Numbered from the stretch's first letter, positions 6,257 to 31,530 are shown. The stretch: 34,510 nucleotides of DNA from Catajapyx aquilonaris (GCA_000934665.2 KZ539068.1:1-34510), one strand, 5' to 3'. Numbers and translations are program-made. The notes: generated by a model from the letters alone, not told the origin.

Positions 6257-6314
6257 ATTATTGTTGTTTATGGTCCCTAATAAGGTTGTATAACATAAAA
6301 GGTTTCATATTCAC

Positions 6315-6363
6315 CTGTAAGGCTGAGGTATGGATTCTGCTGCCCATCTGCATTCCTCGGTTG
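6315..6363 (-). CDS. Small internal exon of the BED-finger gene (QPRNADGQQNPYLSLT)
   Basis: actatttcag|CAA...ACAG|gtgaat; 49 nt, phase 0-1, compatible with both flanking exons. Confidence 0.55.
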
Positions 6364-7119
6364 CTGAAATAGTAATTTGAAACATTAATATACTGTATAT
6401 TCCATCCTTTAAAGGTGGTATTAAATAATATAAACCCTGATTTACAAATATTGGAAAATATTATTACTTGTGCTTTGGAGGCATCCATCTTGGTGTGAGA
6501 ATCAAAAACCAGCCAACTATATACATGTAGTGTGAAATTGAGATATTTGAGAAAAACCTGTCATTTTGCATTTGTTCGTAGACAATAAATATTGTTTGTT
6601 GCAGTTGCCAGATTTTGATTCCGACACAACATGTTTGCCGCTTTTTTGATGCGAAAAGTCAATGGTGCATGCAATTATTGCACTATTATTTCACGTATTT
6701 CACTACACTGGCTACGGAACATCTCCCGGGCTGTACCAACCTCAGTGAGCATTGCTCACTGAGGTTGGTGCAGGAATTCTTTCCATCAAACTCCTGCTTG
6801 TATCATGTCAAAACATTTGTGCTCAGTCTAATTTTTATACAGGATATTCAAAGATCAGAATCACTTGCAAATATTGTAAATGAAAATCATCATCAGTAAT
6901 TATTTCCACACTCACAAAAACATCATGTTTTGCGGTTTTGGCAGTATTCTAAAAATATGCAGAAAAAGTCCTGCATTTGAGGTAGGCCCTACCATAATTT
7001 TTTAAATGCATGGTGCAATTACAGAATTTAAGTTGCATACTAAACTTCAGGAATTCTGCAGGAAATATTTTTTAGATGCCATCAGTGACAACTTCCCCAA
7101 TGCCACCAATAGGCCTAAC

Positions 7120-7302
7120 CTCCACAAGTAATGCTGGGTGGCGGACGCGGAGGTGGGCTTTCAAGTTTGATATCGTGGTGCGGCAGGCCACGGCCTTCTT
7201 GCAAGTGTCACATGTTGCCACACCTTCCACCTCTGTCTTGGTGAAGTACTTCCACAGTGGGCTTGGCCTGCGCTTTGAAGGTGCTGGTCCGTTGTTGTCC
7301 AT
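7120..7302 (-). CDS. BED zinc-finger domain, first coding exon
   Basis: SPLWKYF..ATCDTCKK..TTISNLKAHLRVRH is a BED C2H2 signature. Strong acceptor ttttgttttcttgaag| before 7313, accATGg start, donor GAG|gttagg. Confidence 0.85.
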
Positions 7303-7535
7303 GGTTGTTGTACCTTCAAGAAAACAAAACAAAAACAAACAAAGAAATCAGACAAAATAATTATGACTTAGAAATTCAGTCTCACAGTGTACAAAATAAA
7401 GAACTTATTTTTCAAGAATACCTCTACTGCAGAAATTTAACACAATAACTGATGACACCTGTCATTTTGCAAGACAACTGTTCCTTTTTCAGCAGATTTT
7501 TCTTAAACAATGTTAACTCCCAGCATAATCATACA

Positions 7536-9202
7536 TAATCTATATGAAGACCTCGGGGGAAGAACGATCAAGGTCCACTTTTTGTCAAAAAAGCGTTAAT
7601 GTACATAGTATTTCAGAAGATAGTTTCACTACCCTAGTTTCGGCCCCCAACACTTTGGAAATTAGATCATTATCGTATGCTGACGACATTATATTGCTTG
7701 CGGAGATCCCGTTGTACTTGCAAAGAAATATTCAAGTCCTAGAACTATACCTCGAAAAAAAACTGCTTAAACATTAACTTAAAAAAGACCAAGGCAATGT
7801 GTTTCAAAAGGGCTGGTAGGCGTCCGGAAACTACCATCTTCTGGGATCACACACCTATCCTATGGGCGAAGTCGTACACATACTTGGGTGTCCCATTCAG
7901 CACGAGCGGTAATTTATCTTCAACCAGCCAATTTTTCAAAGCAAGGGCAACGATTGCCATAAACAGCCTTTGGCCCACACTTATGAACTTGAAATTGCGC
8001 GATATCCAAATGGCGCTTAGGCTGCTTCAGGCACAGGTACTTCTATATGGTGCTCAGATTTGGGGGCCGGCCAGAGCTTCATCGTCGATCAAGTCCAAAA
8101 AAATTTCATAAAGAAATTCCTAAGCCTGCCTAGGAACACAGCAAATTATTTCCTGCACATGGAGACAGGAGTGCCACCCTTGTCGTTAAGGTCGTTTGGG
8201 CAATTAAGGTGATTTATAGTTAGAACTAGAGAACTCCCCGACTCCAGACTGATAAAAATAGCTTTTGCATCGGCAAAACACACTGCTGAATCGTTCCCCA
8301 ATGTGAGCATGTGGGCAGTGCAGGCGCGAGCTTTGCTGGCCCTGGGTGGGGTAGAAGACTTGGACTCGGAGGGTTTAGCCTCAATGGCTTCCCTGGACGC
8401 ATACGCAGACTATCTTAATGCAAGGAGCCTTCAAGCCTTAGAGAAATCCATGAGATATGTATTCTATCGAGAAATCTCAGTCTTCCCGAATGTCGCGACT
8501 TTTCTTGCGTTATCAACACCGATCAAAATCACAAGGTTAGTAGCAAACTTATGGCATTGCTCCCAAAGGGTTCCCATTCAGGGTGGATCCATCATGTTCG
8601 AGGTAGAGTCGAATTGCACGTGGTGCAACAGAGAGGAACCGGACACCCTGTACCACCTTCTATATTTGTGTCCTATCTTTGCTACACCAAGGATCGAGTT
8701 TCTCTACGACATCCCCAAATTCCCCGTGAACAAACTGCATCATTTGTTTGCCGAACTTCAAGCAACCAAATGTTTTCAATTGTACAACTTTTTCAACAAG
8801 GTTGCTAAAATGAGAGATCTCTGCGGTTGAACAAGGCAGCTATTTTTTTTTACTTCAAATATTGGTCCGACCTGTGGAACTTATGTTTGCCGGAGCTCCC
8901 TGTTCTTGCTCCGCAAGGTGTGCTTATATATATTTTGTAAAAACCAGGAGGTGCTGTGTCCCCCCAAAAGGGCCATGCCCTGCTTATGGAGTATGAAATA
9001 AAAATAAAAATAAAAAAAAAAATATGGTAGTTTGGTCGTGGTTGCGGAGTAATGATCATTAGGTCACTATGGAAGGCCCCAAAAGTGGGATTTACAATGT
9101 AATTCTATGGGCCTTCGAAATTTAAAATTGGAATATCTCAGTTTCACGCACCTGAGGTGGACCTTGATCGTTCTTCCCCTGAGGTCTTCATATGGTAGAC
9201 TA
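7536..9202. mobile_element. Non-autonomous DNA transposon (TAG..CTA-type ends, Academ-like) split by a LINE
   Basis: 37-bp inverted repeat atatgaagacctc.ggggaagaacgatcaaggtccac at 7542-7578 and 9157-9193; no clean TSD. Confidence 0.65.
7655..9022 (+). mobile_element. 5'-truncated, frameshifted LINE, relative of 5098-6256
   Basis: RT SYADDIILLA, YTYLGVPF, LLYGAQIWG, CTWC..H..C, then a poly(A)-like tail. Confidence 0.9.
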
Positions 9203-9912: not shown

Positions 9913-10114
9913 CAATGACAGAGAGACAGTATAACCGGTACTGATGCTGCGCAACACCTCCCTCCTCTGGGTATGTGCTGGAGGCGTCACAGAGCTGGCC
10001 CAAGGTATAGCGCCTTCACGACTTCCTGTGTCCTTGCGCCAGCTCCAGCGGGCCACCGTCCCCAACCTGTCCACCGTCCCCAACCTGTCCACCGTCCCCA
10101 ACCTGCTGGCCACA
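9913..10114 (-). other. Probable non-coding 5' UTR exon of the BED-finger gene
   Basis: ctcttttttcag| acceptor and TTG|gtaagt donor; no ATG on the minus strand; contains an 18-bp x3 repeat. Confidence 0.5.
10053..10105. repeat. 18-bp tandem repeat x3 (ccaccgtccccaacctgt)
   Basis: Direct reading. Confidence 0.95.
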
Positions 10115-10382: not shown

Positions 10383-10665
10383 GGACAAGAAGTCCTGTTG
10401 TTCCGGCCTAGGGTAGATGGATACAGTTGGGGCTATGTTGTGGGTTGAACCGCGGGTTGAACAATTGAATTTGATAACTTTTGAAATTCCGTCCGAAAGC
10501 CACAAGATCGCACGACATCTCTCGGCCCATTCCTCCATTCTAGAGTTGAACCAAAGATGGCGAATGGCGAGTGACGGAGAAAGAGGACACTAGCTACACG
10601 GACTTCTTTGTGCACATGCTAGCACATTTTGGAAGCGTGGTGGAAACATCACGGGTCATGATGCC
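10383..10665. promoter_or_regulatory. Probable bidirectional promoter / first-exon region
   Basis: CpG-containing unique DNA between divergent genes. YY1/Pho-type AAGATGGCG at 10554-10562; candidate minus-strand donor CC|gtacgt at 10382. Confidence 0.45.
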
Positions 10666-11061
10666 ATGGCGAAGCTGCTGGTGTATGGCGTTGTGCTGTC
10701 GGCCGTGGTGGTGGTGGTGATTTCGGGGCCGATTTCTGATGTTGCCCTGTGCACATCAAATCCTGTCTGCAAGGATGAGCCTAAGCCTCAGTGCGGGATA
10801 TCGACGGACAAATCGCCGTGCGGATCGGCACTCAGGAGGGGATGCAGACAGCTTGTTCGCGGGGAGGATTGCGAGGCTGCCTGTGAACTGCATGATTTTA
10901 GGCATGAAGTGTTGGCCAATGGCACACTCTTGGTCTGGATCCCATATGGATGTGTGCAGGCCCATGTCTATCTCAAATGGAGAAATGATACCAGTAAAGG
11001 ATACAACATCGAGACCACAAAATCGTATCAGAAGTGTCACAATGAGCACATATGCTGTGAG
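10666..11061 (+). CDS. IL-17-receptor-like (SEFIR) protein, exon 1: signal peptide and Cys-rich ectodomain
   Basis: gccATGg start, hydrophobic N-terminus LLVYGVVLSAVVVVVISG, N-glycosylation sequons NGT and NDT, donor GAG|gtgagc phase 0. Confidence 0.85.
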
Positions 11062-11299
11062 GTGAGCATTTGTAGGGTGTGTACCAGGTTGCATTCCTTG
11101 CTACATGTTTTGGTAAATGTGCAGATAAACTGACCAATATATGTAGCAAATCTATGCATTTTACTAGAACAAACCCTTATGTGACACTCACAACACTGTA
11201 TTAGGAGTACCAGGACCATTTTCATGGAGAAAAACCAACTGAAGTGGTACTTGGAAGTTGTTGAGTGTTTGTTGCTCTGAGGCAATCTCTGAATAGCAC

Positions 11300-12540
11300 C
11301 AGGGGCAGATCCGGGGGGGGGGGGGGGGGNNNNNNNNNNNNNNNNNNNNNNNNNNNNGGGGGGGTTCGTCCGCAAGGCCCGAGAGGGCAAAGTAATAAAA
11401 TAATAATAATGAAATTAATGGTGGGATAAAGGTCCCGCGGCGCTTATGGAGGTTGACATGTTAAATGTCATGCCTAATAACTCTGTAATTACTGAACAGA
11501 ATGACATGAAATTTTGACACAACACGACACGACAACAACCCTTGTCACGGCTATGTTGAGCGAAACCTGTTTTAGGGATTCAGTTAATTATGAAAACCAC
11601 AAAACTGAGAGGAATTTGAAGGCATGTGAGGAAATAATGTCCTGTGAAGAATAAGGACCAACTGAATCCCTAAAACAGGTTTCGCTCAACATTGCCGTGA
11701 CAAGGGTTGTTGTGTCGTGTTGTGTCAAAAATTTCATGTCATTCTGTTCAGTAATTACGGAGTTATTAGGCCCGACATTTAACATGTCAACCTCCATAAG
11801 CGCCGGGACCTTTATCCCACCCTTAATAGAATATTTTTTTATATAAGACAGATGAAGTGTGAAAAAACAGGGTTCCACGTTTAAATTCTACTGGGCGCAG
11901 CGTCGCGGAATTTTCTCGCAACTGTAGCCAAGGATTCAGACATCAACCAAGTATGATTAGTTCACTGTAGGTGTAGGAACATGGCAGACAAGACGACAAA
12001 GTGACCCACCAAGCTTGTATATCATGATCATGGTCTACATATGAAAGCCATCTGCGGTTTTTGTGTGTGGCTAGAACACGTGGTTGACAGCGCCAGGGTT
12101 TTTCCCCGCCCGTTGGCACAAACATTTTGCTTGCTTGTACCGGAAAAGTTTACAATTCCAATAATAATCGGGGAAGCCATATAATAATTAAATATGATTT
12201 GCTGCAGAGCAGTGTCTTTTGCGTGACCTGGGAGTCTCGGACCTGGTTCTGGCCAAATCCGTCCACAAACAAAGAATAGGCCTAAATCAGTGGCGTATGC
12301 AGGGGGGCCGAGCCCCCACCCGAAATGTTTGAAATAGCATTAGAAATTACTAATTTGTGAGTTTTTGGAAAAAGTGCTACCAATTTCATCAATACACACC
12401 CATTCAAATCTCCCATATTCACCCAAGCCCGTGTGACCTTAAACCCATTTATTTTTTTCCTGCGGGGGGCTTGCTCCCCGCCCTCTGCTTACAAGCCTGC
12501 TCTCCCCCTCTGCTCTGCTTACCCCCCCNGTCTGCCCCTG
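11300..12540. mobile_element. Composite non-autonomous hAT-like element; contains the assembly gap
   Basis: CAGGGGCAGA..poly-G and poly-C..TCTGCCCCTG ends; perfect 8-bp TSD aatagcac at 11292-11299 and 12541-12548. Confidence 0.75.
11419..11822. mobile_element. TTAA-flanked foldback MITE (Kolobok-like ends)
   Basis: ~165-bp inverted arms (11420-11585 and 11659-11822); TTAA on both sides. Confidence 0.8.
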
Positions 12541-13323
12541 AATAGCACTGGTAGCTGGTGGTGGAAATGGATCAACAGTATCATGCAATTCCCATGACAT
12601 TATTATGTATAGTTATTTAAGATTATCTAAAGTACTGGTATGGAGTGTCATTGTATTGACAGATTACTCTCATCTTGCATCACTATCAATCCGTGGCCTC
12701 CAAGTAAGGGGTGCCTGCATGATACAGTCCAAAACAGTGTCTTCTGAAACAGATTTTAATACCACTTCTGGCTTATTTTTTCTCCCTGAATATGGTTCTG
12801 GTTTGCACAACTGATGTTAGCAAAACTTGTGATGTATTACCCTGCACTCTGCAGCATGCTTGTATAAAATGAGATGTGTACCCTAGTCCCAGAGGAGCAA
12901 GTCTGATGTTATAAAGTGGGGTAACTTGAATGATTTCTTATTCCTTGTAAAAATGAGTAGATACTTGAATTTTAATCATTATTTAAAGACGACAAATGCA
13001 GTCCATGCTGTGGAGTGATAAAACTAATATGCAGGGTGTCAAATTGAAATGATATTATTGATTATCAAATTTTTGGTATCAGCTGGATATTTCCGCATGG
13101 TCTTTTTTTCGGCCACTGGCCGTTTTCGGGGTTTGAGCCTAACATATACACTCCAACTGGTTGCTTTATTTTGCAAGGGTATAGGTGCTCATTTAATCAA
13201 TTCAGTGCATTCTAGCTGCCTTTTGCCATTTTTTCCCAATTCAAGGTATATCTTAATAGGCCTACATGTCATGTTTCATTATTCTACTGCTAAGTTGTCA
13301 GTAATGAATTTATTTGTTACTAG

Positions 13324-13493
13324 GAGACTGCATTAGTCTTCGACTATATGTTCAATGGGACATATAAGTATGATGTCGAAGCAACAGATGACTGCATAAG
13401 TGGCCTGCGGGTGAAGAAAGGGGATGGCTTTCCAGTATCATCTGAGTATCAGCGGCAGCTGTTCGAACCGAAATTAGGAATTCAGACAGAACT
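13324..13493 (+). CDS. IL-17R-like exon 2 (ETALVFDYMFNGTYKYDVE...)
   Basis: ttgttactag| acceptor, |gtatgt donor; 170 nt open in phase 0-2. Confidence 0.8.
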
Positions 13494-13782
13494 GTATGTT
13501 TGTTTGCTCCCTTTTCATGTGCAATGAATTACAGAAGCAACTTGCTATCCTTATCAAAACAGAAATTACAGGTTTTTGGCTGCAGCCAATGATAGTAGAT
13601 GCAAATTATTATGTCCTTACATGAAGCAATATGATGCTTGGGTATTTGCTGTGGCAATGCCATATTTCTGCAATGTAGTCAAGTGGCTATGAATTGCCGT
13701 TGATTTCTCAAATGTGGTTGGCAGGTTAAAGTTAGTACACCATGTTGTGTGTCTGTACAGTACAAGCCTGAATATCTTACAG

Positions 13783-13909
13783 GACCAGGATTTCAATAAT
13801 CATAACACATTTGGAGTGGAAGGGGAAACCCAAGGACACCTTCTCGGTGGATCTATGCCGGACCAGTTCCAGTGATTGTTGTACCCAGTGCCATCCAGAG
13901 TGTCTCCTG
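13783..13909 (+). CDS. IL-17R-like exon 3 (TRISIIITHLEWKGKPKDTFSVDLC...)
   Basis: atcttacag| acceptor, CTG|gtaagt donor; 127 nt, phase 2-0. Confidence 0.78.
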
Positions 13910-13967
13910 GTAAGTTTGCATTCTGCCTTGATTATTATGTGATTAATTCACTTGTTTTTGGTGTCAG

Positions 13968-14115
13968 AATGAAGACAAGTGTCAATTTACCTTCCAAAAC
14001 GTGGAGCCTGGTGAATATAATGTGAAGTTGGCTATTACTGGAGATCCCTGCATTAAGGGTGAATTTTTGAGGGAAGGCCAGATTTGCTTCTTGACTAAAA
14101 AGACAACCATTTCAC
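13968..14115 (+). CDS. IL-17R-like exon 4 (CQFTFQNVEPGEYNVKL, FnIII-like)
   Basis: 58-nt upstream intron, ttggtgtcag| acceptor, C|gtaagt donor; 148 nt, phase 0-1. Confidence 0.82.
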
Positions 14116-14216
14116 GTAAGTGCTTCTCCTCACAAGGTAACTATTGGAAAAATAGCATGTGTGTCAAATTACACTGTACTCCAGATTATTATTATCTGGG
14201 TGCAGATTATATATCG

Positions 14217-14415
14217 GTTAGGATCAAACCCCGAAAACGGCCACTGGGTGAAAAAAAAAAGTCCATACTGCAGAATGCTCCATGTCAAACCGTCCATTCT
14301 GCAGAATGCTCCTTGTCCAACCATCAATTCTGCGGAATGGATGGTTTGGCATAGAGCATTCTGCAGTATTGACGTTTTTTTCACCCAATGGCTGTTTTCG
14401 GGGTTTGAGCCTAAC
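14217..14415. mobile_element. ~200-bp palindromic MITE
   Basis: gttagg.tcaaaccccgaaaac inverted arms of ~70 bp; a solo copy of the right end lies at ~13115-13143. Confidence 0.8.
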
Positions 14416-14783
14416 ATATCCATGTTGCAGACTATTCATGCATCGCCAAAAAAATGTTAGAAATCAAAGTCAAAAAGAATATCAATGTCTCACAAACTAA
14501 AAATTTATCTGATTTTTTTCCAGAAGACAAACCAGGAATCTATGGTAATTTTTATTATTTAATGAAACCTTATATAATGTAGCAGGATGTACTATGACCA
14601 GCAAAAAGATTGGCATACCTTCTTTTGTTTTTCTGTGTTTATGTGTTGGTTATCCTGGCGCTGCCAGGTAACCGTGGTTGTTTATTTTGCGAAATTTCGG
14701 AATCCACAACACCTTGATCACCGGTCACGGTTGCGGTCCCATGGCCGCACGGTCCGGGTCTCCGGAGGCGGGCGGGGCGGGGG

Positions 14784-15687
14784 CAACAACAGTAGAGTAT
14801 AAGAGAACGGACCACTAGACGGGGAAACTGTGACCGACCTGGACCGACCGGTTTAGTTCGGATAGGAGCTGCCGCGGCGCTGGCGTCGCATAAAACAAAG
14901 GACGGGGCAGGGCCGCAGGGGGGGAGTAGTGACGTCATTACCGTAGTTACCTTGCTCAATACGGTAATTTTTATTTATAAATGGGGGGTTTCTTGTTCCT
15001 TTTATATTAATAGATCCCAACAATTTATTCATAAAAACAACACCAGGTTTTCCATTTTCCTTTCATCCATATCGATAAAATGACAAATATGACAAAATGA
15101 CAGCTGTTGGCATTTCTTCTTGGTATTGCAGCCCGGTACAACGCAAGACATTCCTTTGATGCCTAAACCGCTACAAAAGCAACGGCGTCTGCATATAGAA
15201 AGATAGACTGATGATTCGGCACCGTGGATTCAGTAAAAGCACCGACCGGTAGCCGACCGATGTGACCGGAATCTTGCCGGAAATCGGAATAGTTCTTAAA
15301 AGCTCCGGTCCGTCGACCTTTAGCGTACCGGTTGCAGTTCGAACAATGTTCGAATGGTTCAAACATGTTCCTGGAATCTTGGTTCAAATATGGTTCGCGT
15401 CCCGCCAGTCCTTGGGCCAGTCCAAGCACTGGTTATGATTGGTATCGTAGTAATAAAAACCACACCCAGTTTGAAGTATACATTAACAACAGGTAAACAT
15501 TATACACATTAATATTTTCAAACATTTTAATTTTAATTTTATTATGTCGACGACAGCGCTGCGTCCGCTCCCATCGGAAGCTCTATTGCTCTATGCTCCT
15601 TCCCGGGCCACTTCAAGGGCCCCGGCAAAAGTTGTCAATAGGGAATTCACATTGAGTGGGCTGTTCTCTTATACTCTACTGTTGTTG
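14784..15687 (-). mobile_element. P-element-superfamily MITE with a THAP N-terminal relic
   Basis: Perfect 25-bp TIR CAACAACAGTAGAGTATAAGAGAAC; 7-bp TSD gcggggg, with the empty site in the opposite arm; MSCVVPGCNTKKK..LSF on the minus strand from 15151. Confidence 0.75.
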
Positions 15688-16180
15688 GCGGGGGTGGGAG
15701 GTGCGTTGCGTTGTCTGGTGAGGGTGAAACGGTGTTTATTTGGGGGTGATGGGGGGAAGTGAAAGGCGGATGAGGCAGTGGCCACGACCCGGGCAACACT
15801 CCCCCGAGGCGTCGAGGCAAAACTATATAAATAATGCACTTTTTCCAACTTTTCAGGGGGGAAAAATATTTTCGTTTGATCTGCTGCCATCCCGGTTCAA
15901 GTGACCCTACCAACCACCAAAATATACGTTCCTATAATGAATTTTTTCTCCTCTTTCTAGTACACTACGCCAATTGTCTCGAATTGCAACAGGAAACGTG
16001 TTGGGCAGTGGTTTTTTTTGTGTTTGTCCGGTCGGGAACACGTACGAATCGTACGATCATCGCGGCTTGAAATATTATTATACCGAATGTCGGCATAGAA
16101 AAAATATAGCGTGAAACAGCGAGGGGGAAATACTGTCGGAGTGTCGGGTGCGCAAGGAGGGAGCACATACGCAAAAACCA

Positions 16181-16530
16181 GGGAGACGGAGTGGCGCCGT
16201 GGTAACGCGTGCGCCCACGGAAGTTAAGGTCCCGGGTTCAATCCCCACCCGGGGTCCCACCTTCTTTCGTGCAGAGTGAGACCGTCTCTGGCTTCGTTTC
16301 GGGTGGCGATCCTTGCACATAAGCCACCCGGGGGAGTTCACAAAACGGCAAATACAACGTCTGTGCACACGCACTTTGCACATCCCCTCCTACCTACCCT
16401 TGGAACACACTAAGTACTATCACACAGTACACCAGTTCCACCCAAATGGTGGTAATTCCACCCCCCTAATGGAAATTAACTCCCAACGGGGTACAATAAA
16501 AAAAATAAAAAATAATAATAAAAAAAAAAA
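16181..16530 (+). mobile_element. tRNA-derived SINE
   Basis: A box TGGCGCCGTGG, B box GGTTCAATCC (16235), A-rich tail, 18-bp TSD gca.atacgcaaaaacca. Confidence 0.9.
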
Positions 16531-17167
16531 GCATATACGCAAAAACCAATGTCTAGTATTTAAAAACACACACACACACACTAGCGACTAGCCTATCACC
16601 AGATATGTGCACGGCTTTCGCTAACATGGCATCACACGTGCTTCATATATTGCAAAACCCAAAAAAAAGTGCTTCATGTGGACATCCATCGGGCAACAAG
16701 GTATCGTCCACGTCTGACCAAATGGATAATATAGTAATAGCAAGAGCTCTTGGTAATAGTTAGGGAGAAGTGATCCCCACTGATTACAAATCCTTAATTA
16801 ACTCATACGTCACTTGCTTTATCTAAGCAAACAACCCATGGTTACCCTTTGAAATTTCCATTGGCAGTATCTTGACCAGTGCTCCAATTTCTCCTTTTTG
16901 GTCGTTCGCGATAGATAGCGGTGTCGCAAGTCTTACTTACACCGCTTACACCCGTTCAGTCGCTGAGCGAGAAATGAACTAGCCTACTGAATTTGCCAAT
17001 TTTCACATTTGCATGTAGTGCTATCAGAACTTTAAAATTCTGCCCAACTTCAGGCGGACGCGATTATATAACTGCGATAGGCACGTAGAACATTACAGAA
17101 TATGCTCCATTTAATTTACGAAGCCAAACAAGCACTTTCATTGTATTTTTCTGGTGCAATCTACAAC

Positions 17168-17504
17168 GCGGGCCCCGATTTCTCCGACGGGACCTTTCCC
17201 TTTGGGGCTCGACGGAGGCCTGGGTGACCAGGCGGAAGTCGAGAGGCCTGTCGGACGGGATTGGGGCGAGCTCCGGACCTTACGGGTTCGGGACTCGATC
17301 GTGGGACGGGCGGCTCCTCTGGGTGTCGTCCCGATGGTCAAGTCTCGACCCTATGACGGCTTGGGTTCGATTCGGAAGCGAACGGGTGGTCCGCCCCTGG
17401 CGGACCACGATGAAAGGGACTTAGAGTGATGATATAGGCCCTATGTGGGGCCCGTAGTTTAAGGACCTACATGGTCTGGAATAACCCCGTTAATATCTGA
17501 CTAA
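17168..17504 (+). mobile_element. 337-bp GC-rich, highly structured retroposed insert of unknown type
   Basis: Perfect 15-bp direct repeat ggtgcaatctacaac at 17153-17167 and 17505-17519; many hairpins with G-U pairs on the plus strand. Confidence 0.7.
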
Positions 17505-18053
17505 GGTGCAATCTACAACCGTATTAGTGTTAGTCCCATGCCTGAATAACTTCTTCAGGACGATTTCCCAATATGCCTTTGTGCAAGGGGTGGTATTTTC
17601 AGAAACCTGGTCTATTATAGTCAGGAGATGATTGGAGTGAATTAATAAGTGCGGAATTCCGTTGGCGGGGGCGAGGGCCTGGTGACGTCATCATCAGAAT
17701 TTTCAATAATTTATATCTCTAGATTGGCTGCAGCTAGAGAGGAACTGTTTTCGACACAAACCGGGACAAACGAAGCACTAACGAACGGCGCCTCCAAAAT
17801 AATTGCGAAATTCAGTTGGTGGGGGGGCTGGCCCAAAAATTTGAAAAATTAATATAATGCCCCCTCCTTGCGCACCCGACACCCCGACAGTATTTCCCCC
17901 TCGCTGTTTCACACTATTTTTATTCTAAGCCGACATTCGGTATAATAATATTTCAAGCCGCGATGATCGTACGATTCGTACGTGTTCCCAACCGGACAAG
18001 CACAAAAAAAACAACTGCCCAACACGTTTCCTGTTGCAATTCGAGACAATTGG

Positions 18054-18324
18054 TTGGTTTAGTTGGTTTATTCGGAAGAAGCCAAAGCAACTATGGCTAT
18101 CTGGCTGTAAGAAGAAGCAAAGGTGGGACAGATGGAGAGAGAAACGAAGAGGAAAAAGAAGAGAGGAAAGACTGGCATCTCTCTTAGTCTGTCTCCTATC
18201 CCAAAGACCTGTCCGGCTTGGGTGGCCCTACCAGTAGACGAAGCTACCGCCGGCATAGCTCTTGGGATCACGGGAGAAACGCAAACCCCACCACCACGAT
18301 AAGGTGGAGATACCATCGGGGGGT
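18054..18324 (-). mobile_element. 271-bp SINE-like insert with an RTE/BovB/Expander-type 5' leader
   Basis: 11-bp TSD gagacaattgg, single-copy in the other TIR arm. Leader motifs ccaccttatcgtggtgg, gagctatgccg, gtagggccacccaag.cggacaggtc, agactaa; AATAAA plus a short repeat tail. Confidence 0.8.
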
Positions 18325-19285
18325 GAGACAATTGGCATAGAGTACTAGAAAGAGGAGAAAAAATTCATTATAGGAACACATATTTTGGTGGTTGGTAGGG
18401 TCACTTGAACCGGGATGGCAGCAGATCAAACGAAAATATTTTTTCCCCCTGAAAAGTTGGAAAAAGTGCATTATTTATATAGTTTTGCCTCGACGCCTCG
18501 GGGGAGTGTTGCCCGGGTCGTGGCCACTGCCTCATCCGCCTTTCACTTCCCCCCATCACCCCCAAATAAACACCGTTTCACCCTCACCAGACAACGTAAC
18601 GCACCTCCCACCCCCGCCCCGCCCGCCTCCCGAGACCCGGACCGTGCGGCCATGGGACCGCGACCGTGACCGGTGATCACGGTGTTGTGGATTCCGAAAT
18701 ATCGCAAAATAAACAACCATGGTTACCTGGCAGCGCCAGGATAGCCAACACATAAACACAGAAAAACAAAAGAAGGTATGCCAATCTTTTTGCTGGTCAT
18801 AGTACAGTGTCAGCAGTATATAAAAAAAACCTCTGAATAGCTCATTTTAGAGTTAAGGACCATTTTCGAATTATCTGTGTTTTCCACTTAGGCTATATGG
18901 GCACACCTGGCATTCATTAGCACAGATAATTGGGAATACAGTGTACATGTAAACATTTAGGGGACCTCCCCCATGTAAGGCTTGAAGCCTACCAGGGTTA
19001 AATAAACTAAACTACATGAATTTTCTGAAGTTCCCAGTTTGAACTGAAAGGAATAATCATTGAAAGTACATGGTGTTTAACCTCTTTAAAATACTGACCT
19101 TTATGCAGCTTTCTACACATATAATTTATATTGCATTACCCTTACTCTGCAATCTACAGCTTGCTGGTATAAAATGAGGTCAACCAAGGGGGAACTGGCC
19201 AGCTGGTATAAGGCGTGGTAATTTTCATGTGATTTTCTCCTTGCCTTAAAAATTTCTGGTATTCCCAATAAAATAAATGGAAATA

Positions 19286-20080
19286 CAGGTCAAATCTCGT
19301 TTAGCGAATACCAATACAATGAAATCTCAATAGAACGCAAAAAAATTTTAACTTTGGTTGGCCAGTCGTAAAAGCAATATATTTGTAATCTCGTTATTAC
19401 GAAATGCGTTACTATGAAATTTTCAGTACAACAAATACTACAGGTGGTTCCCCGGCTAGTATTGAACCTGATATAACGAAATATGCACTAGTGCAATGCT
19501 CCGCCACACATGCTCCAGGACTAGCAATAAGCGAGTGCACCGTAAACGTCAAGCAAACCATTGACATAATCGCTGAAGCTTGGTCGTGCGTAACACCGTC
19601 CACAATCATGAAATGTTGGAGTAAAAGTTGCATCATAGGGTCAGCAGTGGGGAGGTTCGGGGAGCGACCAGGATGCCAAAGACTCAGATGACCCTGATGA
19701 CCTGTCTGTGTGGAGGTCCGTTGCTGAAAGCACCGGCATGCCGGATGAAGTTACCTTCCACGATTTTGTAGGTGCAGATGACGATCTACAATGGGGCTCA
19801 AATTGTTTTGGCCACTTTATCCTGGTCTTGAAGCAACCCTTCACACACACACACATACTTCCTCACCGTGGGGCCTGTGAGAAGGGTTGCTTCAAGACCA
19901 GGATAAAGTGGCCAAAACAATGTGAGCCCCATAGTACAAGTGTGCCAGGAGTTGACAGATTCGGACATACTTGGGGGGGAAATAAAAATAACTGATCTCG
20001 ATGTAACAAAATTTCCTTATTACAAAAAGTTAAAACATTTGCTCGGTCCCGCCGGTTTCGTTGTAATGGGATTTTACCTG
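19286..20080 (+). mobile_element. Deleted Tigger/pogo element
   Basis: TA-flanked CAGGT.AAATC.C.TT...CGAA TIRs; IAEAWSCVTPSTIMKCW and VTFHDFVGADDDL remnants. Confidence 0.82.
19789..19934. mobile_element. 146-bp palindromic MITE nested in the Tigger element
   Basis: ~58-bp arms with TA duplication; removing it restores DDDLQVCQELTDSDIL. Confidence 0.85.
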
Positions 20081-21628
20081 TATTATCAAAATAATGTTAA
20101 AACTATTTTATGGGGATACCAATTCGAGGTTTAAGGATTAAATCCATGGCACCAGTAAACATTTTCTTTTTATTCTGGTGTGGTTCACTGACCGGCACAT
20201 TATGGTATATTCATATTGTATACTCGCTTGTCAGTAGGCCTACATTATGAGGACCACTAAAACCAAGACAGTTGCAGTATGTGTTTTTCAACAAATCTTT
20301 CCTGCTGGCTTAGGGACATCAATGATAGTTTTTCTCTAGCTGGGCTGCCCCTGTGTTAATTCAAAGGGCAGGAGAGGTTGAAAACTGCACTGCCAATGTA
20401 CCATAGCACTCCTGCCACCATGTTGACTGCTTAGTCCTCGGACAATGAGTGGAGGGGAGGGAGCATTTTATTGTAAAATTTGGCAAGGTATTTTCAGAAG
20501 CTATTCTTGACTGGTGATGCTGATGGGGGAAGAGTATGTAAAACTCTGGCATGTTCTCCTTCATTTTGTGACTCAGAAACATTGCGACCTTTTCGCAGGT
20601 AAAATAGTGATAAAACCCCCTCTACATTGGCAGATTCCCCTTATACTAGCATGCCGCTATAGCCACCAGATGTGTGCTGTCTGAAATCTGGTCAACCCTG
20701 TTTTTACTGGTATGCTGCACATTGCAGGGTAATATGGTATTAATAGGACCAGAACAATGGTGTGATAGGACATACTGTATGCACCTAATGATGTAATTAT
20801 CAGGGGTTATGTTGAGTGTTATGTACAGGGTGTTGTTCATCATGTCATCTTAGAAATATATATCCGTGCAAATCCTGTGTACATTCCGGAGTTGGCTATT
20901 TGGTTGAAATGTGAGGTGGCTTCCATGTGTGGTGCATGGAATTTGAGTAACCATTCCTGCAGGATTGCCAACTTGGGGCTGGTACGCTCAGGTCAAAAAT
21001 TCAATTACTGCTGATGCCACTTTTTATCTCTGGGTGTGGCCATATGTTGCCTCCAATCCCAGCCTGTTTCCCTATTCACTCCTAGGGGGCTACAGGATTG
21101 GTGATGATATCAAAAAATCGTAATTGACTGCATATTTTATGCTCATGTTAATACTAAATCTGAACACATTTTAAATCAGGGATTTTTTTTCTGATTTTTG
21201 GAGCCCAACTTGTCAAATGATGTAACCCTTCCTATAGGATTTAAAACAGGGTGTTGGGGTTGGCAGTGACAGATTTCAAAATTTTGACCTTCACAAAAGT
21301 TTTAAAATGCATTTCTTGACATTTTTCACCCAACTAGAGTAGAAATTTTGTACCCAGTTTTCCTTGTGTGAGTTGTGAGAAATGACTATTTCGCTGGGTC
21401 AAATGAGTGCTGCTTAAAAAATTGGTGTTCTCATCGACTCTTGATGCCAAGTGTTTCAATGGGCCCTTCCCACTTGGAAATTCATTGTTATTCAGATCTT
21501 GGGAAGATATTTCAGTTTGGCCTAATATTATCAGCTAATACCAGTACCTTTGATAACTATTGAAAGTAACTACCCCAAAGTAACTGCTTAAAAATAAATC
21601 ACAGTGCCAAAAAATTGCTACTACTTAC

Positions 21629-22379
21629 TTTCTTACTAGTAGGTCAAGCCACAAGTGGCATATTCCTTGGCCCAAATCAAGCCAAAAAAATAGGGGAGAG
21701 CAATATCGAGGGACCAACCTGTTACGAGGTTGACGACCTGAAACATTGGCCTACCCTTAGACACAGGTGGCAACACACACGACACCTCTTCGTAGGGAGA
21801 TCTCCTGGCAGATAGACTTGAGCGCCTTACAGGGGCTGCCTAGGGAGCAGGATATAAGTGTGATAATCACTTCTGAAAAAGAATTGAAGCCCACACCTGG
21901 AAAACGTTGTGTCTAACAAAATGTGATATATGAGAAAAATATGAAAAATGTCCCTATCTGCAACAGGGAACTGTAAATTTATTATCCGAATTAGTTTGAA
22001 CAAAGGATTACCAAGTTCCACAGGTGGCCGTCGAGGACACCAGCTGATGGAGCTTTGATGATACAATGTTTTACCATGGAAAACACAACTTTGACAATTT
22101 GTTTGTTACAACGTTTTCCAGCTGTGGGCTTCAATTGATCTTGCAAAATCAAACCAGTCATGATTATCTCACTCATATCCTGCTCCCTAGGCAACCCCTG
22201 TAAGGCTCACGAGACCACCTGACAGGAGATCTCCCTACAAAGAGGCGTCATGTGTGTTGCCACCTGTGTCTAGGGGTAGGCCAATGTTTCAAGTAGTCTA
22301 CCTCGTTACAGGTTGGTCCCTCTGCATTTCTCACCCCTACATTTCAGACTTGGTTTGGGCTTGACCTACTAGTAAGAAA
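21629..22379. mobile_element. Old foldback MITE with ~240-bp diverged arms
   Basis: 21629-21869 is the inverse of ~22160-22379. Confidence 0.8.
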
Positions 22380-22591
22380 CACCCTGCATAACAGACATTT
22401 CAATGGAAACACCCTCCATAACAGAAACAGGACAAGCATTATTTAAACATCTTTTGCCTTGGTTCCACAAATGAATTTCAATATTTAATGCATTTGTGTT
22501 ATTTCAGTAACGCTGCATTCATTCGCACTTGTTCCTGTTTCTGCTATTGCAGGTAGTGCCTTCATTCCTACTGGGGTATATTACATGAACC

Positions 22592-22797
22592 TTTATTTAT
22601 TATTACCTGTTTACATTGCACTGATAATAATTGGGGAAAGGGAAAGGCTCCCAAGGGAGGGATCCCCTGCATAGTTTTCAGACCTGCTGAAAATTCAGAC
22701 CTTTTCTCTTGGCTCTGGGGGTGGAGGGGAGGGGGGATTTGAGCCCTGGACCTCTCAATTGGCTGGCCAGTGGCGTAACCACTACACCACTATGGAG
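22592..22797 (-). mobile_element. Degenerate tRNA-derived SINE
   Basis: Minus strand: A box TGGTGTAGTGG, B-box-like GGCTCAAATCC, aataataaataaa tail. Confidence 0.65.
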
Positions 22798-23002
22798 CAC
22801 ATTATTTTGTTTCTGCTATTGTCTGTGGCAGAGGTATTTCATAGTTGGATATTGGGGTAAGGTGGAAATGGGGAAGGTTACCTTTTGACACATTGTGACA
22901 GCCCTGGGCTAACTCATACCAAGAAAACACGTGTTCCTTGAGCACTAGTTTATTCGACCTTCCAAGTACTGACATAAGTGAGTACCGACTGTCCCCTTAT
23001 GG

Positions 23003-23529
23003 CAGGGCTATTCAACTGGCATACCACGGTCCGAATCCGGATGATGCAATTTTGTCCGGACTGCGACAATATACAGGACAGTTTGAAATAGCATGATAAA
23101 TTACTAATTAATGATTTTTTAAAAGAAGTGCTACCAATTTCATCAATACACACCCATTCAAATCTCCCACATTCACCTAAGCTCATGTGACCTTGAACCC
23201 CCCAAAAACTTTGCCTGCGGCGGGCTCTTTCCCTGCCCATTACGGCTTGTTCACCTTGTTCTTACGAAATGGGCCCCCCTCCAAAATTCTTCTGCCTACG
23301 CGCCTGTACAGGACATCATAAAGGGCGAAAATGTCTTAATATGCCCTGTCTTGATATGCCCTTCTACCCTTGCTGTCATGTTTCTATTTTTGAATATGAA
23401 CCCTGTGGTACCATATAAAATCTATATATTTTTACCCAGGGGGGGTGGGGGGGTGGGGGGGGAGGGAACCTTCAATGGCCTAGGAAAGGTAAATAATGGA
23501 CCTTGTCCTAAACTAGTTGAATAGCCCTG
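23003..23529. mobile_element. hAT (Buster-type) MITE
   Basis: 15-bp TIR CAGGGCTATTCAACT; perfect 8-bp TSD ccttatgg; internal segment shared with 12348-12446. Confidence 0.88.
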
Positions 23530-24330
23530 CCTTATGGCTTTACAACCCAGACCTCTTTGAATGCCAGACCCAACCCACATACATGCCTGGTCAGGGTCAG
23601 ACCCTGACAACATGTTTCACAATAGAATCAAACTAATGCCGAGTTATTGATTGCTGCACCACTCATTGAGTCCACATGTTACAAAACTCACTTGCCTCAG
23701 GGAGAAAAATTAATTCCTGTTGCAAACTCAAGAGTAAAGAAATAATAACTGGGTACAATTTTGGACTCTTGATGGATCCAAAATATTACGAAATACATTT
23801 TCATTAATTTAGGATACCGGTAGGCTTCTTTTTGTGTTTCCCTTTGGGGAGGGGGAAGGGGAAGGGTCAGCAAAAAAACATGCTGGTATGTTTTTACTGA
23901 CTTGTAAGCAACAAAAGTGCATTCCAAATGCCCTCCATGGGGTGACCTACAAGGGTGTGACAGTTTGGGTTGCATCTGATCAGCAATTCTTTTGTTACTT
24001 GCTCCATAGTCAATAGTTTTTGAGACACGATGGGATAATATTCGTCTTCCGTTAATTTTTTCTTCTATTTTTCCCGGCTAAAAATCTTTCCAAGTTATAC
24101 CATGTCTGCCTGGTGGTGCCTTCTGATCCTATGTATATCTTGTGACTGGGAAAATTCCAGGAACCACAAGAGCGTTTGACTTAGGCTAGATGCACTTTTT
24201 CCCACGCATCCGAGAATTCTGGATGCTTGTAACACACCTTGTGTTGCTTTTTTGTGATGTTACTTGAACTTTGGCAGTTATGTAGTCTGTGTAGTTTGGA
24301 GTTTTGACATGTTTGACACCCTTATTTTAG

Positions 24331-24847
24331 GAAACTACCCACAAACAGAACAACAGCCAGGAAGCACCAACTCTGTGTGGTATTGGATATTGATAGCACT
24401 GGTGCCGCTTGGGTTTGGTGCCATTTGGGTTGGCGCCTACATTAGACGGCGCTTCATCTGTTGGGGTGTTCAGGACCTGAGAGGACCTGAGACCAAGAAG
24501 TGTGTGTCACCAAAGATAGTTGTCCTTCTCTACCAAAGAGATTGTGATGAATTTCATGTTGCAATTGGGCAACTCAAGGCATGCTTGCAGGGATGTAGCC
24601 TTGAAGTGTGTGATTACTTGGAATCCTGTGATAAGCACTTGGATGAACACTTGGTTGGCCATATATCAAGTTTGCTAACCAATGAACACCACCAAGTGAT
24701 TCTGGTGGCATCCAAATTGGCTGCTCTTGCTGCATGGAATGGGAACATTTCATATGTCAAACCTCATAGACATGATCGTCTGTTCTCATATGCATTCAAG
24801 CGCCTGAGTGAGATAGCCCTAGTATATCAGCGAGTTTTTGTGGTCAG
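24331..24847 (+). CDS. IL-17R-like exon 5: TM helix and most of the SEFIR-like domain
   Basis: cttattttag| acceptor phase 1; TM WYWILIALVPLGFGAIWVGAYI then RRR; VVLLYQRDCDEFH, VILVAS, PHRHDRLF, YQRVFVV; AG|gtatgg donor. Confidence 0.88.
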
Positions 24848-24873
24848 GTATGGATGAGAATTTACACGAAATA

Positions 24874-25569
24874 CAGGGTGTCCACAAATGATGGGGCCAA
24901 AGTAAAAAAATTCTAGAAAATGCGACATACAAGGTACAACTCCCGTACATATCTCATAGCAAAGAGGAAGGTTGAAAGTTTTTTTTTTTGACATATCTCA
25001 CCACATGAAATGATTAGTGCCTTGCCATCTAGAAGTTAAAAATAGTGTCAGCGGAGGAAAAGGCTTGGTGCGTGCTGCAGAGGTTAATGCCACAGCTGCA
25101 AGAAGAAGCCTCGGATTTCATCTTCCAACAAGATGGAGCGCCTCTGCATTTCCATCTCCACGTCCGCAACTACCTGAATCGGCTACTGCCTCAAAGGTGG
25201 ATCGGGGCATTCCACTGACAGTGATGCAGTTTTCTGGACTTGGCCACCCCGTTCACCAGAATTGACGCTGTGTGATTTTTTTTTGTGGGGGTACATTAAG
25301 AATACAGTGTTTGTGCCACCCCTCCCGAGATCTTCGGCCGAACTGAAGCACCGCATCACTGTCGTGGCTTCCATAACGCTGACATGCTACAATGCACCGA
25401 TTTCCTGTTAAACGCCTGCCGTGTCACGTGGTGCTCATATCGAGGGTTTGTCTATGTAAAAAAACTTTCAACCTTCCTTTTTGCTATGAGATATGTACGG
25501 GTGTTGTACCTTGTACGTCGCATTTTCTAGAATTTTTTTACTTTGGCCCCATCATTTTTGGTCACCCTG
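24874..25569 (+). mobile_element. Tc1/mariner (rosa/LTIR-like) deleted element filling intron 5
   Basis: TA-flanked CAGGGTG ends, ~115-bp TIRs, FQQDGAP and WPPRSPELTLCDFFLWGYIK remnants. Confidence 0.9.
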
Positions 25570-25612
25570 TACTTGTAATGTTGAGTAAATTTATGGAATA
25601 TTTTTATTGCAG

Positions 25613-25826
25613 CTTTGATGGGTATGAGGATGACAGCATAGCAAGATCTCTTACCACTTATCGTCGCTTTATCCTCCCACAAAAGATTGATGAATTGCTT
25701 TCTACCTTGAAGGGAGGAGAACACACTTCATGTGGCACAAATGAATACGATGATCTTCAGGCTGCGATAAATAAGTTGAAGGGAGTTTGCAAAGAGGATG
25801 GGAATCACCACGTGGCCATTGTGTAG
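25613..25826 (+). CDS. IL-17R-like exon 6: SEFIR C-terminus and stop
   Basis: tttttattgcag|C phase 2; FDGYEDD..RRFILPQKIDELLSTL resembles the SEFIR end motif; TAG stop. Confidence 0.85.
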
Positions 25827-26352
25827 ATCTCAGCACTTGTTAAAATGCAATTATTTTTATAAAGTTACAGAATCTCATATTATCATAGCCCCTAGTTATT
25901 GTACTATACAAGTGACAGCTCAGAAACAAGAAAGTCTTGCAGCATGATTCAGTGTCGCCCACTCAATGTCTTCTAGAACAGATTCAGGATCAAGTTCTCT
26001 GTTGCATGATACATTTTGGTCATGGCTTTACCTAATAATTTCACATGGTGAAACTCAGATCTTTGCATACATTTGTACTGTACAATGCAAGTTGCCTTTG
26101 CATAATTTGAAACTTGAGGGTTTTGGTATTGCACTTCTGTACCTCTTCACTTTGAAATGGCCATGAAGCTCACTAAAATATTATTATGCAAGGATTCATG
26201 TTATTTTCTCTGGAAATAAGGTAAATTAATGTCATAAATTGAAAATGCTTAATGGCCAGTGGAAAATGAGGAAAACCATAATATTAATAATATATGGAGT
26301 GTTCCAATACCAATGTGAGCTACATATTAAAACTTGAAATGTAATGGCCATC

Positions 26353-26759
26353 GAGAATGCACTTCTGGAACCACCCACTTTTCACATTTGGAACAATGGG
26401 AACTGGAGACCTCAGGTTACCAGCTGGCATAAAGTGACATTTTTGTAATATATTAAAACACTTGCATGTGGGAGTCCAGCATCAATTTAAATTTGGGAAG
26501 CACAAGCACCTGAGTAGTATTTTCACTGCCAGTGGAATGCTTTTGAGGGATATTGTTTGCTTCACGAGGCATCCATGACCCCCTTGAAAAGAGTGAGAGA
26601 AGAGGAAGGTGGCTGTTGTTCAGAGATGCACTCACGCAACAAAAGGAGTAATGAGTGTCGGTCCTTGGTCAAGAGTATTTTACTGTTTGGAAATGGGGAG
26701 AGGATGGGATAGGGACTAAGCTTCTGGTGAAAAGTGGGAGGTTCCAGATGTGCATTCTC
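26353..26759. mobile_element. Old MITE with ~33-bp inverted repeats
   Basis: gagaatgcac..ctggaacc.cccacttttcac at 26353-26385, inverse at 26727-26759. Confidence 0.55.
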
Positions 26760-30545: not shown

Positions 30546-31530
30546 TCAAGCTTTAGATTCTAACCTACACACCTTGTCTTTAACAGTCTCCTTAACATTC
30601 CACCTTTGCAAAATCTCCTCATTCCTAATCCTGTCCAACTTAGTAACCCCACAAACAGCCCAGAGATAATGCATCTCTGTAGCCAACACCCTACTCTTAT
30701 GCCTATCTGACCAAACCCACGCTTCACTACCATACATAAGTGAAGGAACAATAATAAGTGAAGGAACAATAACGTGAGAATAGACAGACAACCTGCAGGC
30801 AGAGGATAAGTCCTTATTTCTAGAAAACTTACTTGTGGCACCTATCACTTTCAACCCAGAACTAACTCGCCTGTCAATCTCCCCATCCATTCTACCATTA
30901 CTCTCAAGGACACTACCCAGGTATACAAACTGGTTGACCTGCTCAACCAGTCTTCCTCGTACCTGCAACAGACAAGGAGAAACCTGCCGTCCTCTCTCAA
31001 ATACCAATACCTTAGTCTTATCTACAGTAATCCTCATACCCCTCTTTTCACAAACATTATCTAACTTGCATAGGATCAACTGTAAATCAGCCTCACTCTC
31101 CGCAAGAAGGGCAGAATCATCTGCATACAGCAAGTGACTAACTAACTCATCACCAAACTGCACTCCTACACCTTCAACCATAGCTTCCATTACACATGCA
31201 TCTAACAATAAGTACAAGGAGACATGACACAACCCTGCTTAACCCCAACACATGTTAAACCAGTCAGAGAAACCCCCACTAAGTTCTAACACAAGCTCTA
31301 CTCTCTTCATACAATGACTTCACAGCCTCCACAAACCTTCCCTACTCACTGTGTCATAGGCTTTCTCTAAGTCTACAAAGGCAACCAAAACCTTCTTGTT
31401 TACAGCTAAATACTTTTCTATCACGAGTCTCACACAGAATATCTGATCTGCGCAACTCTTACCCGACATAAACCCACTTTGAATATTCAGTATTCTCTGA
31501 CTTGCGACCCTCTTAACTCTTTCTATCAAG
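30546..31530 (-). mobile_element. RTE (BovB-like) LINE reverse-transcriptase fragment, degenerate
   Basis: QSGF..GKSCADQIF, FVDLEKAYDTV, GVKQGCVMSP, LLYADD, FVYLGS, YGSEAW, VTKLDRIRNEEI; internal stop, deletion and frameshift. Confidence 0.93.

Follow-up and report, generated by a model that had tools for sequence, protein, structure and literature searches.

IL-17 receptors occur in crustaceans and chelicerates as well as across many orders of insects, according to the available part of PMC11087794. The receptors listed there include IL-17R1/2 of Penaeus vannamei and IL-17R1/2 of Lygus hesperus, and the further hosts listed are Limulus, Ixodes, Daphnia, Apolygus, Harpegnathos, Zootermopsis and Cimex. 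The same part of that paper gives CFSH and PTTH as the cystine-knot ligands of the arthropod receptors, describes many IL-17Rs as having double-FN3 and SEFIR domains that are “degenerated” and hard to find even for domain models, and states that the Act1/CIKS adaptor was not found in arthropods despite a sensitive search (PMC11087794). Two crustacean CFSH receptors, Sp-SEFIR of Scylla paramamosain (652 aa) and Lvit-IL-17R of Lysmata vittata (625 aa), are each described with a signal peptide, a transmembrane (TM) segment and a SEFIR domain in the sections available (PMC10418988, PMC10604874).

The window (the whole 34,510-nt stretch of DNA that was analyzed) holds a gene whose predicted product can be set beside these receptors. 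It is a real, spliced gene of six exons that encodes a single-pass membrane protein. The reading that we favor, at a probability of about 0.58, is that of a diverged IL-17R-like receptor: a type I protein with the IL-17R layout, whose cytoplasmic tail most probably represents a SEFIR domain (STIR superfamily) that has diverged strongly. The arthropod IL-17Rs are likewise type I single-pass proteins, and an arthropod window would make them the relatives to expect; this likeness is drawn from description rather than from sequence comparison, and the receptors for which CFSH and PTTH binding was demonstrated are those published ones (PMC11087794, in the part available). Three short words of the predicted protein had no occurrence in the PNAS supplement PDF. 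The overall architecture is also held in common with vertebrate IL-17RA-RE and IL-17RD (SEF).

Splicing of the six exons in silico (396+170+127+148+517+214 nt) yielded an open frame of 523 aa followed by TAG, and every internal exon boundary was of the AG|..|GT type. Lengths, phases and product were thus all as the initial annotation had proposed. As a check on the choice of exons 2 and 3, candidate AG/GT-flanked intervals (18 of 170 nt and 14 of 127 nt) were tested; three ordered 170/127-nt pairs kept the frame open, and the pair chosen earlier was the one found spliced in transcript contigs. Two out-of-frame ATGs lie near the start of exon 1, at 10658 and 10661. The sole AATAAA/ATTAAA in the 574 nt scanned past the stop codon was at 26326.

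Table 1. Exons and associated features of the receptor-like gene, in window coordinates.
Feature	Position	Strand	Remarks
Exon 1, coding part	10666..11061	+	aa 1-132; ATG in GCCATGG context; signal-like N-terminus and first Cys-rich part of the ectodomain
Exon 2	13324..13493	+	aa 133-189, ectodomain; AG/GT boundaries
Exon 3	13783..13909	+	aa 189-231, ectodomain; 5 Cys clustered at aa 214-229
Exon 4	13968..14115	+	aa 232-281, membrane-proximal ectodomain
Intron 4	14116..24330	+	10,215 nt, repeat-rich
Exon 5	24331..24847	+	aa 281-453; last 14 ectodomain residues, TM helix, RRR, start of tail
Exon 6, coding part	25613..25826	+	aa 453-523 and TAG; rest of tail domain, C-terminus
3' untranslated region	25827..25960, at least	+	0-mismatch contig extends to 25960

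Transcript support came from a single sequencing run found for the locus (X1), whose library kind is not on record. Four of the five predicted introns (exon 1-2, 2-3, 3-4 and 5-6) were removed in X1 contigs that had 0 mismatches to the window and GT..AG joints, which makes the gene model more than a product of chance. The joints were located at 11059>13322 (exon 1 being covered from 10755 to 11059), 13493>13783, 13908>13967 and 24844>25610; the contig carrying the last of these covered exon 5 from 24569 to 24844 and ran on to 25960. The fifth joint, from exon 4 (14115) to 24331, was not among the X1 joints, and no X1 contig lay on 24331-24568, which is a gap in coverage and not evidence. The splice-junction check that had been proposed for this gene therefore came out positive at four introns and left the exon 4-5 joint unseen.

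That joint bears on an alternative in which separate transcripts carry exons 1-4 and exons 5-6, the first encoding a secreted Cys-rich protein and the second a short membrane protein, and the 523-aa receptor is an artefact of modeling. Besides the unseen joint, this account has in its favor an intron that would span 10.2 kb of repeat-rich DNA (including a large inverted repeat with arms at ~14588-16165 and ~17858-18806, pairs I1-I3, 95-98% complementary) and an in-frame ATG just upstream of the exon-5 acceptor, in the same open frame (ORF 24258-24857). It is countered by the phases, since the phase-1 end of exon 4 matches the phase-1 start of exon 5, which lies behind a good polypyrimidine-AG acceptor, and by the ectodomain, which has no membrane anchor without exon 5 and meets no stop until 14354. 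Moreover, arithmetic on the contig table places the departure of a 773-nt X1 contig from the genome ~150 nt past 13967, with ~20 letters unplaced. By this depth arithmetic, the departure point would coincide with the predicted donor, suggesting that the donor at 14115 is used and that the contig leaves exon 4 for a downstream exon and not for the intron. We consider two separate transcripts quite improbable.

The topology of the predicted protein was judged by hydropathy rather than by a dedicated signal-peptide predictor, and it is that of a type I single-pass protein with an N-terminal signal. Only two hydrophobic spans were present: aa 1-31, the signal-like N-terminus with the look of a cleavable signal, and aa 296-318 (24375-24443), the single TM span, which is directly followed by RRR (stop-transfer). 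The latter span was modeled as a helix with block pLDDT of 73-80. It was the only confident part of a first fold (overall pLDDT 43.5) that rendered the tail all-helical and was discarded save for this helix. The ectodomain (~265 aa) contains 20 Cys as well as 3 N-x-S/T sequons. On the cytoplasmic side, a putative alpha/beta domain begins ~23 residues past the membrane, at 24513; exon 5 encodes its first ~112 residues. A signal-like N-terminus, the Cys-rich ectodomain and the single TM helix of the initial annotation were hence all recovered, and this architecture, with its ~200-aa tail, fits IL-17R/SEF. Like the present protein, Sp-SEFIR and Lvit-IL-17R have a signal peptide and a cytoplasmic domain that begins soon past the membrane, and their build is similar, with an extracellular part of ~295-310 aa and a 23-aa TM segment (PMC10418988, PMC10604874, sections available). 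Their tails are longer, however (288-294 aa vs 205 aa, one of theirs with low-complexity regions), and their SEFIR domains were recognized by SMART, whereas no domain model fires on the present tail.

The ectodomain gave few further leads. The FnIII-like strands that had been described there amounted to three sub-threshold beta-sandwich Pfam matches on the exon-4 piece (Y_Y_Y, fn3_3 and NOMO_6th, E 0.17-0.23). When the products of the four ectodomain exons were scanned as separate pieces of 42-132 aa, no IL17R_fnIII_D1/D2, IL17_R_N, IL17R_D_N or fn3 match was obtained at E<=1. The exon 1 product had no usable match in the ESM Atlas.

The tail was searched in several ways. Pfam returned no SEFIR, TIR or IL-17R family for any of the six separate exon products (E<=1), and neither SEFIR (PF08357) nor TIR (PF01582/PF13676) appeared at E<=10 when the two products that share the domain across an intron, those of exons 5 and 6, were scanned separately; PADLOC likewise gave no SEFIR or TIR family on these pieces (E<=10). 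Against PDB chains, phmmer yielded nothing but 4 noise matches, to CREBBP. A phmmer search of the exon-5 product against 1.84 billion representative proteins produced one match (P0001), which was rejected as spurious: it is an internally repeated protein in which one 38-residue stretch was matched five times. In a word-indexed search for longer proteins, 0 of 473 candidates reached E<=10. A metagenome scan left two of 18 pattern stretches after tblastn (L001 and L002), both 40-residue matches at 39% identity; L001 lies on a phage-like contig with genes on the opposite strand and was dismissed as chance.

A further comparison employed a profile of bacterial SEFIR proteins, assembled from 25 domains (alignment A1) that constitute all PF08357 matches from three phyla (6/401, 13/401 and 5/401 genomes with matches). 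This profile recovered Act1 (E 9e-19) and IL-17RA (E 5.9e-4, 22.8 bits) among PDB chains, and TIR chains as well, but its score for the spliced tail as a whole was -1.8 bits, a value equaled or bettered by 544 of 2000 shuffles. The tail is accordingly further from bacterial SEFIR domains than human IL-17RA is. The probability assigned by hhalign to the pairing of tail and profile was 0.39%. An extended SEFIR profile gathered 595 proteins; among the 120 listed, all named ones were bacterial, with no metazoan SEFIR among them. Bacterial SEFIR proteins (PDB 5y8e; alignment A1) resemble the tail by eye alone, in a short hydrophobic strand, a helix and a second strand ending in an acidic residue; they differ in being cytosolic proteins rather than receptors and have no statistical similarity to it. 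A likeness by eye of the tail to the SEFIR domains of vertebrate IL-17RA and Act1 was not counted as evidence. Solved SEFIR chains include 4nux_A (IL-17RA) and those of 9ot1 (IL-17RB/RA with Act1). As the blank searches demonstrate, the tail is without detectable sequence relatives, and the signaling domain is too diverged for any alignment method to recognize.

Language-model features gave a different picture. For the exon-5 product, the ten best family-bearing matches in the ESM Atlas were all SEFIR clusters, the top one at a score of 0.87 with 187 of 256 features in common (recognition 3068). In calibration, 170 shared features were reached by 9 in 10 same-family matches vs 1-2 in 10 chance matches; at 0.87, the score falls short of the 0.9 line set for the tool and marks the match as a lead only. 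Several of these matches were IL-17R clusters also bearing IL17R_fnIII or IL17_R_N, including clusters of the IL-17RB type (IL17R_fnIII_D1/D2 plus SEFIR).

STIR domains belong to a fold class of alternating strand/helix order. Since two exons share the tail and the searches detected no relatives of it, a second fold was confined to 121 of its 205 residues and made without an alignment. Its order was strand-helix-strand-helix-strand-helix-helix-strand at a low-confidence pLDDT of 48.9; the cytoplasmic alpha/beta domain of the initial annotation is consistent with this alternation, as seen in the low-confidence model. Foldseek and VIA matched this partial model just to generic three-layer alpha/beta folds, and the matches listed included neither a SEFIR nor a TIR chain, a result of little weight given the low confidence of the model.

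These results bear on a reading of the gene as a lineage-restricted type I membrane protein with some other doubly wound fold (flavodoxin- or Rossmann-like) in its tail, unrelated to IL-17 signaling and like the receptors in architecture alone. The blank outcome of every sequence and profile search and the Atlas score below 0.9 speak for it. Against it stand the ten Atlas matches, all SEFIR with 187 features in common, and the IL-17R layout, in which a Cys-rich type I protein carries the domain directly behind its TM helix; the generic fold matches, coming from a partial low-confidence model, lend it little. We regard it as possible but unlikely. A further reading, in which the tail is an unsampled, very fast-evolving STIR branch or a new membrane-proximal alpha/beta signaling module on a lineage-restricted receptor for which the 1.84 billion proteins yielded no relative, is likewise unlikely.

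A TIR-domain receptor, related to IL-1R or Toll and signaling via MyD88-type adaptors, was weighed on the same data. SEFIR and TIR form one superfamily and do not differ in strand/helix order, TIR chains are picked up by the bacterial SEFIR profile too, so that the two are hard to separate at such divergence, and the pattern of the second fold suits both. However, the Pfam and PADLOC scans of the tail pieces gave no TIR family, no TIR cluster was among the ten best Atlas families of the exon-5 product, and no LRR or Ig family was found at E<=1 on any of the four ectodomain exon products, scanned separately as 42-132 aa pieces from which a diverged domain could escape. Such a receptor appears very improbable. 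The SEFIR assignment of the initial annotation, based on motif recognition, thus gains from the Atlas features and the fitting architecture, draws no support from Pfam, PADLOC, phmmer or the profile, and is not proven.

Were the gene an IL-17R-like receptor, an IL-17-class cystine-knot ligand, secreted and represented in arthropods by CFSH and PTTH among others, would bind the ectodomain and draw receptor chains together, and the tail would signal by homotypic STIR-domain contacts. The window has 76 open frames, and none of them matched an IL-17 family. The wider proposal that this gene implies an unrecognized ligand is dated, as arthropod IL-17Rs and their ligands CFSH and PTTH are published, and an unrecognized SEFIR adaptor is not implied, since Act1/CIKS was not found in arthropods (PMC11087794, in the part available). 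Speculatively, if the genome is that of an arthropod, the downstream partner is probably not Act1/CIKS and may instead be another receptor chain or a TIR-pathway adaptor. The latter idea was prompted by IL-17R-MyD88 contacts that have reportedly been observed in amphioxus and zebrafish.

A search with a reverse-transcriptase fragment matched 7 of 1343 candidates (best 41% identity); its named matches were to a fish and a plant only, are uninformative on taxon and lend no support to the arthropod-type genome of the initial annotation. Rfam gave 0 matches in the window.

Published work already covers arthropod IL-17Rs, the classes of ligand that they bind and the missing Act1 (PMC11087794, PMC10418988, PMC10604874, in the sections available), and in that respect no new question is opened. 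The practical value lies in a transcript-supported gene model for a locus that automatic annotation would probably call “uncharacterized”. Should the tail instead prove to be an unsampled STIR branch or a new module, this receptor might supply the partner that a neurohormone-type cystine-knot ligand of its lineage lacks so far, and it would signal without Act1. If the tail is a SEFIR domain, as we favor, one very diverged receptor would be added to the invertebrate IL-17R repertoire; such diverged receptors are routinely missed by domain models, and those of arthropods have recently been tied to sex-differentiation and molting hormones (CFSH, PTTH) rather than to immunity.

The six exons proposed in the initial annotation were all present at their predicted lengths (Table). 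All internal boundaries of the model had the arrangement AG-exon-GT, the acceptors were pyrimidine-rich, and the joined exons formed an open stretch of 523 codons followed by TAG (exon phases 0, 2, 0, 1, 2). As alternatives for exons 2 and 3, every AG/GT-flanked interval of 170 nt (n = 18) and 127 nt (n = 14) between exons 1 and 4 was enumerated. The open frame was kept by three ordered pairs, and thus the frame alone leaves these two exons unfixed.

Table. Exons of the receptor-like gene and transposon-related frames in the window
Feature	Position	Strand	Basis or remark
Exon 1	10666-11061	+	GT at the internal boundary; length as initially annotated
Exon 2	13324-13493	+	AG/GT boundaries; length as initially annotated
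Exon 3	13783-13909	+	AG/GT boundaries; length as initially annotated
Exon 4	13968-14115	+	AG/GT boundaries; length as initially annotated
Exon 5	24331-24847	+	AG/GT boundaries; length as initially annotated
Exon 6	25613-25826	+	Length as initially annotated
BED zinc finger remnant	7075-7347	-	Pfam, E 9e-11
Reverse-transcriptase fragment, RVT_1	30549-31238	-	Pfam, E 6e-7
Weak zf-RVT remnant	8213-8827	+	Pfam
248-aa frame, no family	5050-5793	+	Resembles the frame at 8213-8827

Splicing was assessed with the contigs of X1, a public sequencing run (library kind not on record) that covers part of the locus. When aligned to 10400-26400, these contigs had no mismatches and featured GT..AG joints at 11059>13322, 13493>13783, 13908>13967 and 24844>25610. 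The joints coincide exactly with introns 1, 2, 3 and 5, confirming the model there; four of the five introns were therefore seen to be removed, intron 4 being the exception. Spliced RNA is the likelier source of the contigs, a processed DNA copy the less likely one; in both cases the splice sites of these four introns were used. For intron 4, a 773-nt X1 contig has 170 letters remaining past exon 3. At a contig depth of 4.1, the value of 2.12 in the bin 13604-14137 equates to 126+150 aligned letters rather than 126+170. The predicted donor (14115/14116) is therefore where the contig departs from the genome, and ca. 20 letters are unplaced. This arithmetic on depth figures provides one indirect point for use of the exon 4 donor. 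Judged from the sequence, a join of exon 4 to exon 5 would fit the phase (1 on both sides) and the good acceptor at 24331. That exons 1-4 and exons 5-6 belong to separate transcripts is compatible with the unseen removal of intron 4 and is considered improbable. The gene is real, as is its architecture.

Several features were noted near the 5' end of the gene. Two out-of-frame ATGs (10658-10663, 8 and 5 nt 5' of the predicted start) open a 21-codon frame that overlaps this start and ends at 10720. The X1 contig begins at 10755, inside exon 1, with the 5' end of the transcript outside it. A perfect 18-nt tandem repeat (10053-10105, 2.9 copies) precedes the start codon by ca. 560 nt. Intron 1 contains a run of 28 Ns (11330-11357) and a single N (12529), which are assembly gaps or masked bases; its length may therefore be inexact.

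The remainder of the window is transposon debris, with remnants on both flanks of the gene (the 5050-8827 side and 30549-31238). Pfam matches at E<=0.01 were obtained for four of the 76 open frames of at least 85 aa: zf-BED, RVT_1, a weak zf-RVT and "tify", the last of which was judged to be due to chance. No IL-17-like ligand was present among these 76 frames, and neither Rfam matches nor other cellular genes were found in the window. A protein search with a transposon-derived sequence returned no names that bear on the arthropod-type genome initially suggested. In intron 4, a large inverted repeat (14588-16165 and 17858-18806) comprises three collinear blocks whose arms of 196-294 nt show 95-98% complementarity; it represents a foldback-type element or else one repeat present twice, with the copies oppositely oriented. 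The summed X1 contig depth at 15740-16273 was 752, versus 2-8 for the exons, which indicates a high-copy or highly expressed repeat. Intron 5 harbors a 117-nt inverted-repeat pair (95%; 24869-24985 and 25458-25574, 472 nt apart) that looks like a degenerate terminal-inverted-repeat element. The short open frames that it encloses had no transposase family in Pfam; presumably, they are similar to the C-terminal region of transposases of the mariner type. A 120-nt direct repeat of 89% identity (12327-12446 in intron 1 and 23081-23200 in intron 4) belongs to a family of dispersed repeats; both copies showed raised X1 depth.

Hydropathy analysis marked no hydrophobic spans other than aa 1-31 and aa 296-318, the second of which is followed by RRR; 20 cysteines and three N-x-S/T sequons lie between them. 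In the first AlphaFold run, the exon-5 product was modeled confidently only in the transmembrane helix (block pLDDT 73-80). The product is therefore a type I single-pass membrane protein with a disulfide-rich ectodomain, and the cysteine-rich ectodomain and single transmembrane helix initially described were borne out. The sole hint of the FnIII-like strands also described was in the exon-4 piece, which had three sub-threshold beta-sandwich matches in Pfam (E 0.17-0.23).

The 205-aa cytoplasmic tail had been assigned to the SEFIR family by motif recognition, and all alignment-based searches for this assignment were blank. Pfam detected no SEFIR, TIR or IL-17R family in the six exon products scanned singly (E<=1) or in pieces of the tail (E<=10), and PADLOC, whose models cover SEFIR and TIR domains of bacteria, was likewise negative. 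Four phmmer matches to PDB chains were all noise; the word-indexed protein search returned 0 of 473 candidates. A single phmmer match among 1.84 billion representatives, to a repeat protein, was judged spurious. Two matches from a metagenome scan were attributed to chance. A profile was built from 25 bacterial SEFIR domains taken from PF08357 matches (in 6/401, 13/401 and 5/401 genomes of three phyla). Against it, the whole tail, spliced by coordinates, scored -1.8 bits, with 544 of 2000 shuffles equal or better, and hhalign gave a probability of 0.39% over 18 columns. As a positive control, a search of PDB chains with this profile retrieved Act1 (9ot1_E, E 9e-19) and IL-17RA (4nux_A, E 5.9e-4). 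Thus the tail, if a SEFIR domain, is farther from the bacterial consensus than is human IL-17RA. The profile is bacterial in make-up; when it was extended by a further search, every named row among the 120 matches listed was bacterial as well, with no metazoan SEFIR sequence among them.

A feature search of the exon-5 product in the ESM Atlas, which uses a protein language model, pointed to SEFIR (recognition 3068). The first match was a SEFIR cluster (0.87, under the tool's 0.9 line; 187/256 features in common), and SEFIR was present in all ten of the best family-bearing matches, several being IL-17R clusters that additionally bear FN3 or N-terminal domains of IL-17R. On the calibration supplied with the tool, such a result amounts to a good lead but falls short of proof. 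When 121 residues of the tail were modeled in a second AlphaFold run that omitted the transmembrane helix, confidence was low (pLDDT 48.9, pTM 0.35); the secondary structure was ordered as strand, helix, strand, helix, strand, helix, helix, strand. STIR domains belong to the doubly wound alpha/beta class, and the order in this model would place the tail in the same class. A TIR domain would share this fold class and is very improbable, no TIR family having been detected by Pfam or PADLOC in the tail pieces at E<=10. An unrelated alpha/beta domain would accord with the blank alignments and leave the Atlas matches to SEFIR aside; we regard it as unlikely. The reading that we favor, at a probability of about 0.58, is a diverged receptor of IL-17R-like type whose tail is of the SEFIR class.

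The view that such receptors are little characterised in insects is dated: PMC11087794 reports IL-17Rs in many insect orders, crustaceans and chelicerates, with Diptera and Lepidoptera excepted. The same paper describes binding of shrimp CFSH and lygus-bug PTTH to their respective IL-17Rs, and states that a sensitive method, too, did not find CIKS/Act1 in arthropods; the initial suggestion of an unrecognised ligand and SEFIR adaptor is therefore also superseded. It further notes that FN3 and SEFIR are too degenerate for domain models in many IL-17Rs. According to PMC10418988 and PMC10604874, the crab and shrimp CFSH receptors (652 and 625 aa) have the same layout as the 523-aa protein. The latter would be a new and unusually diverged addition to an already described receptor kind. 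If the genome is that of an arthropod, its ligand would be expected to come from the CFSH, PTTH or IL-17 class, and Act1 would not be expected.
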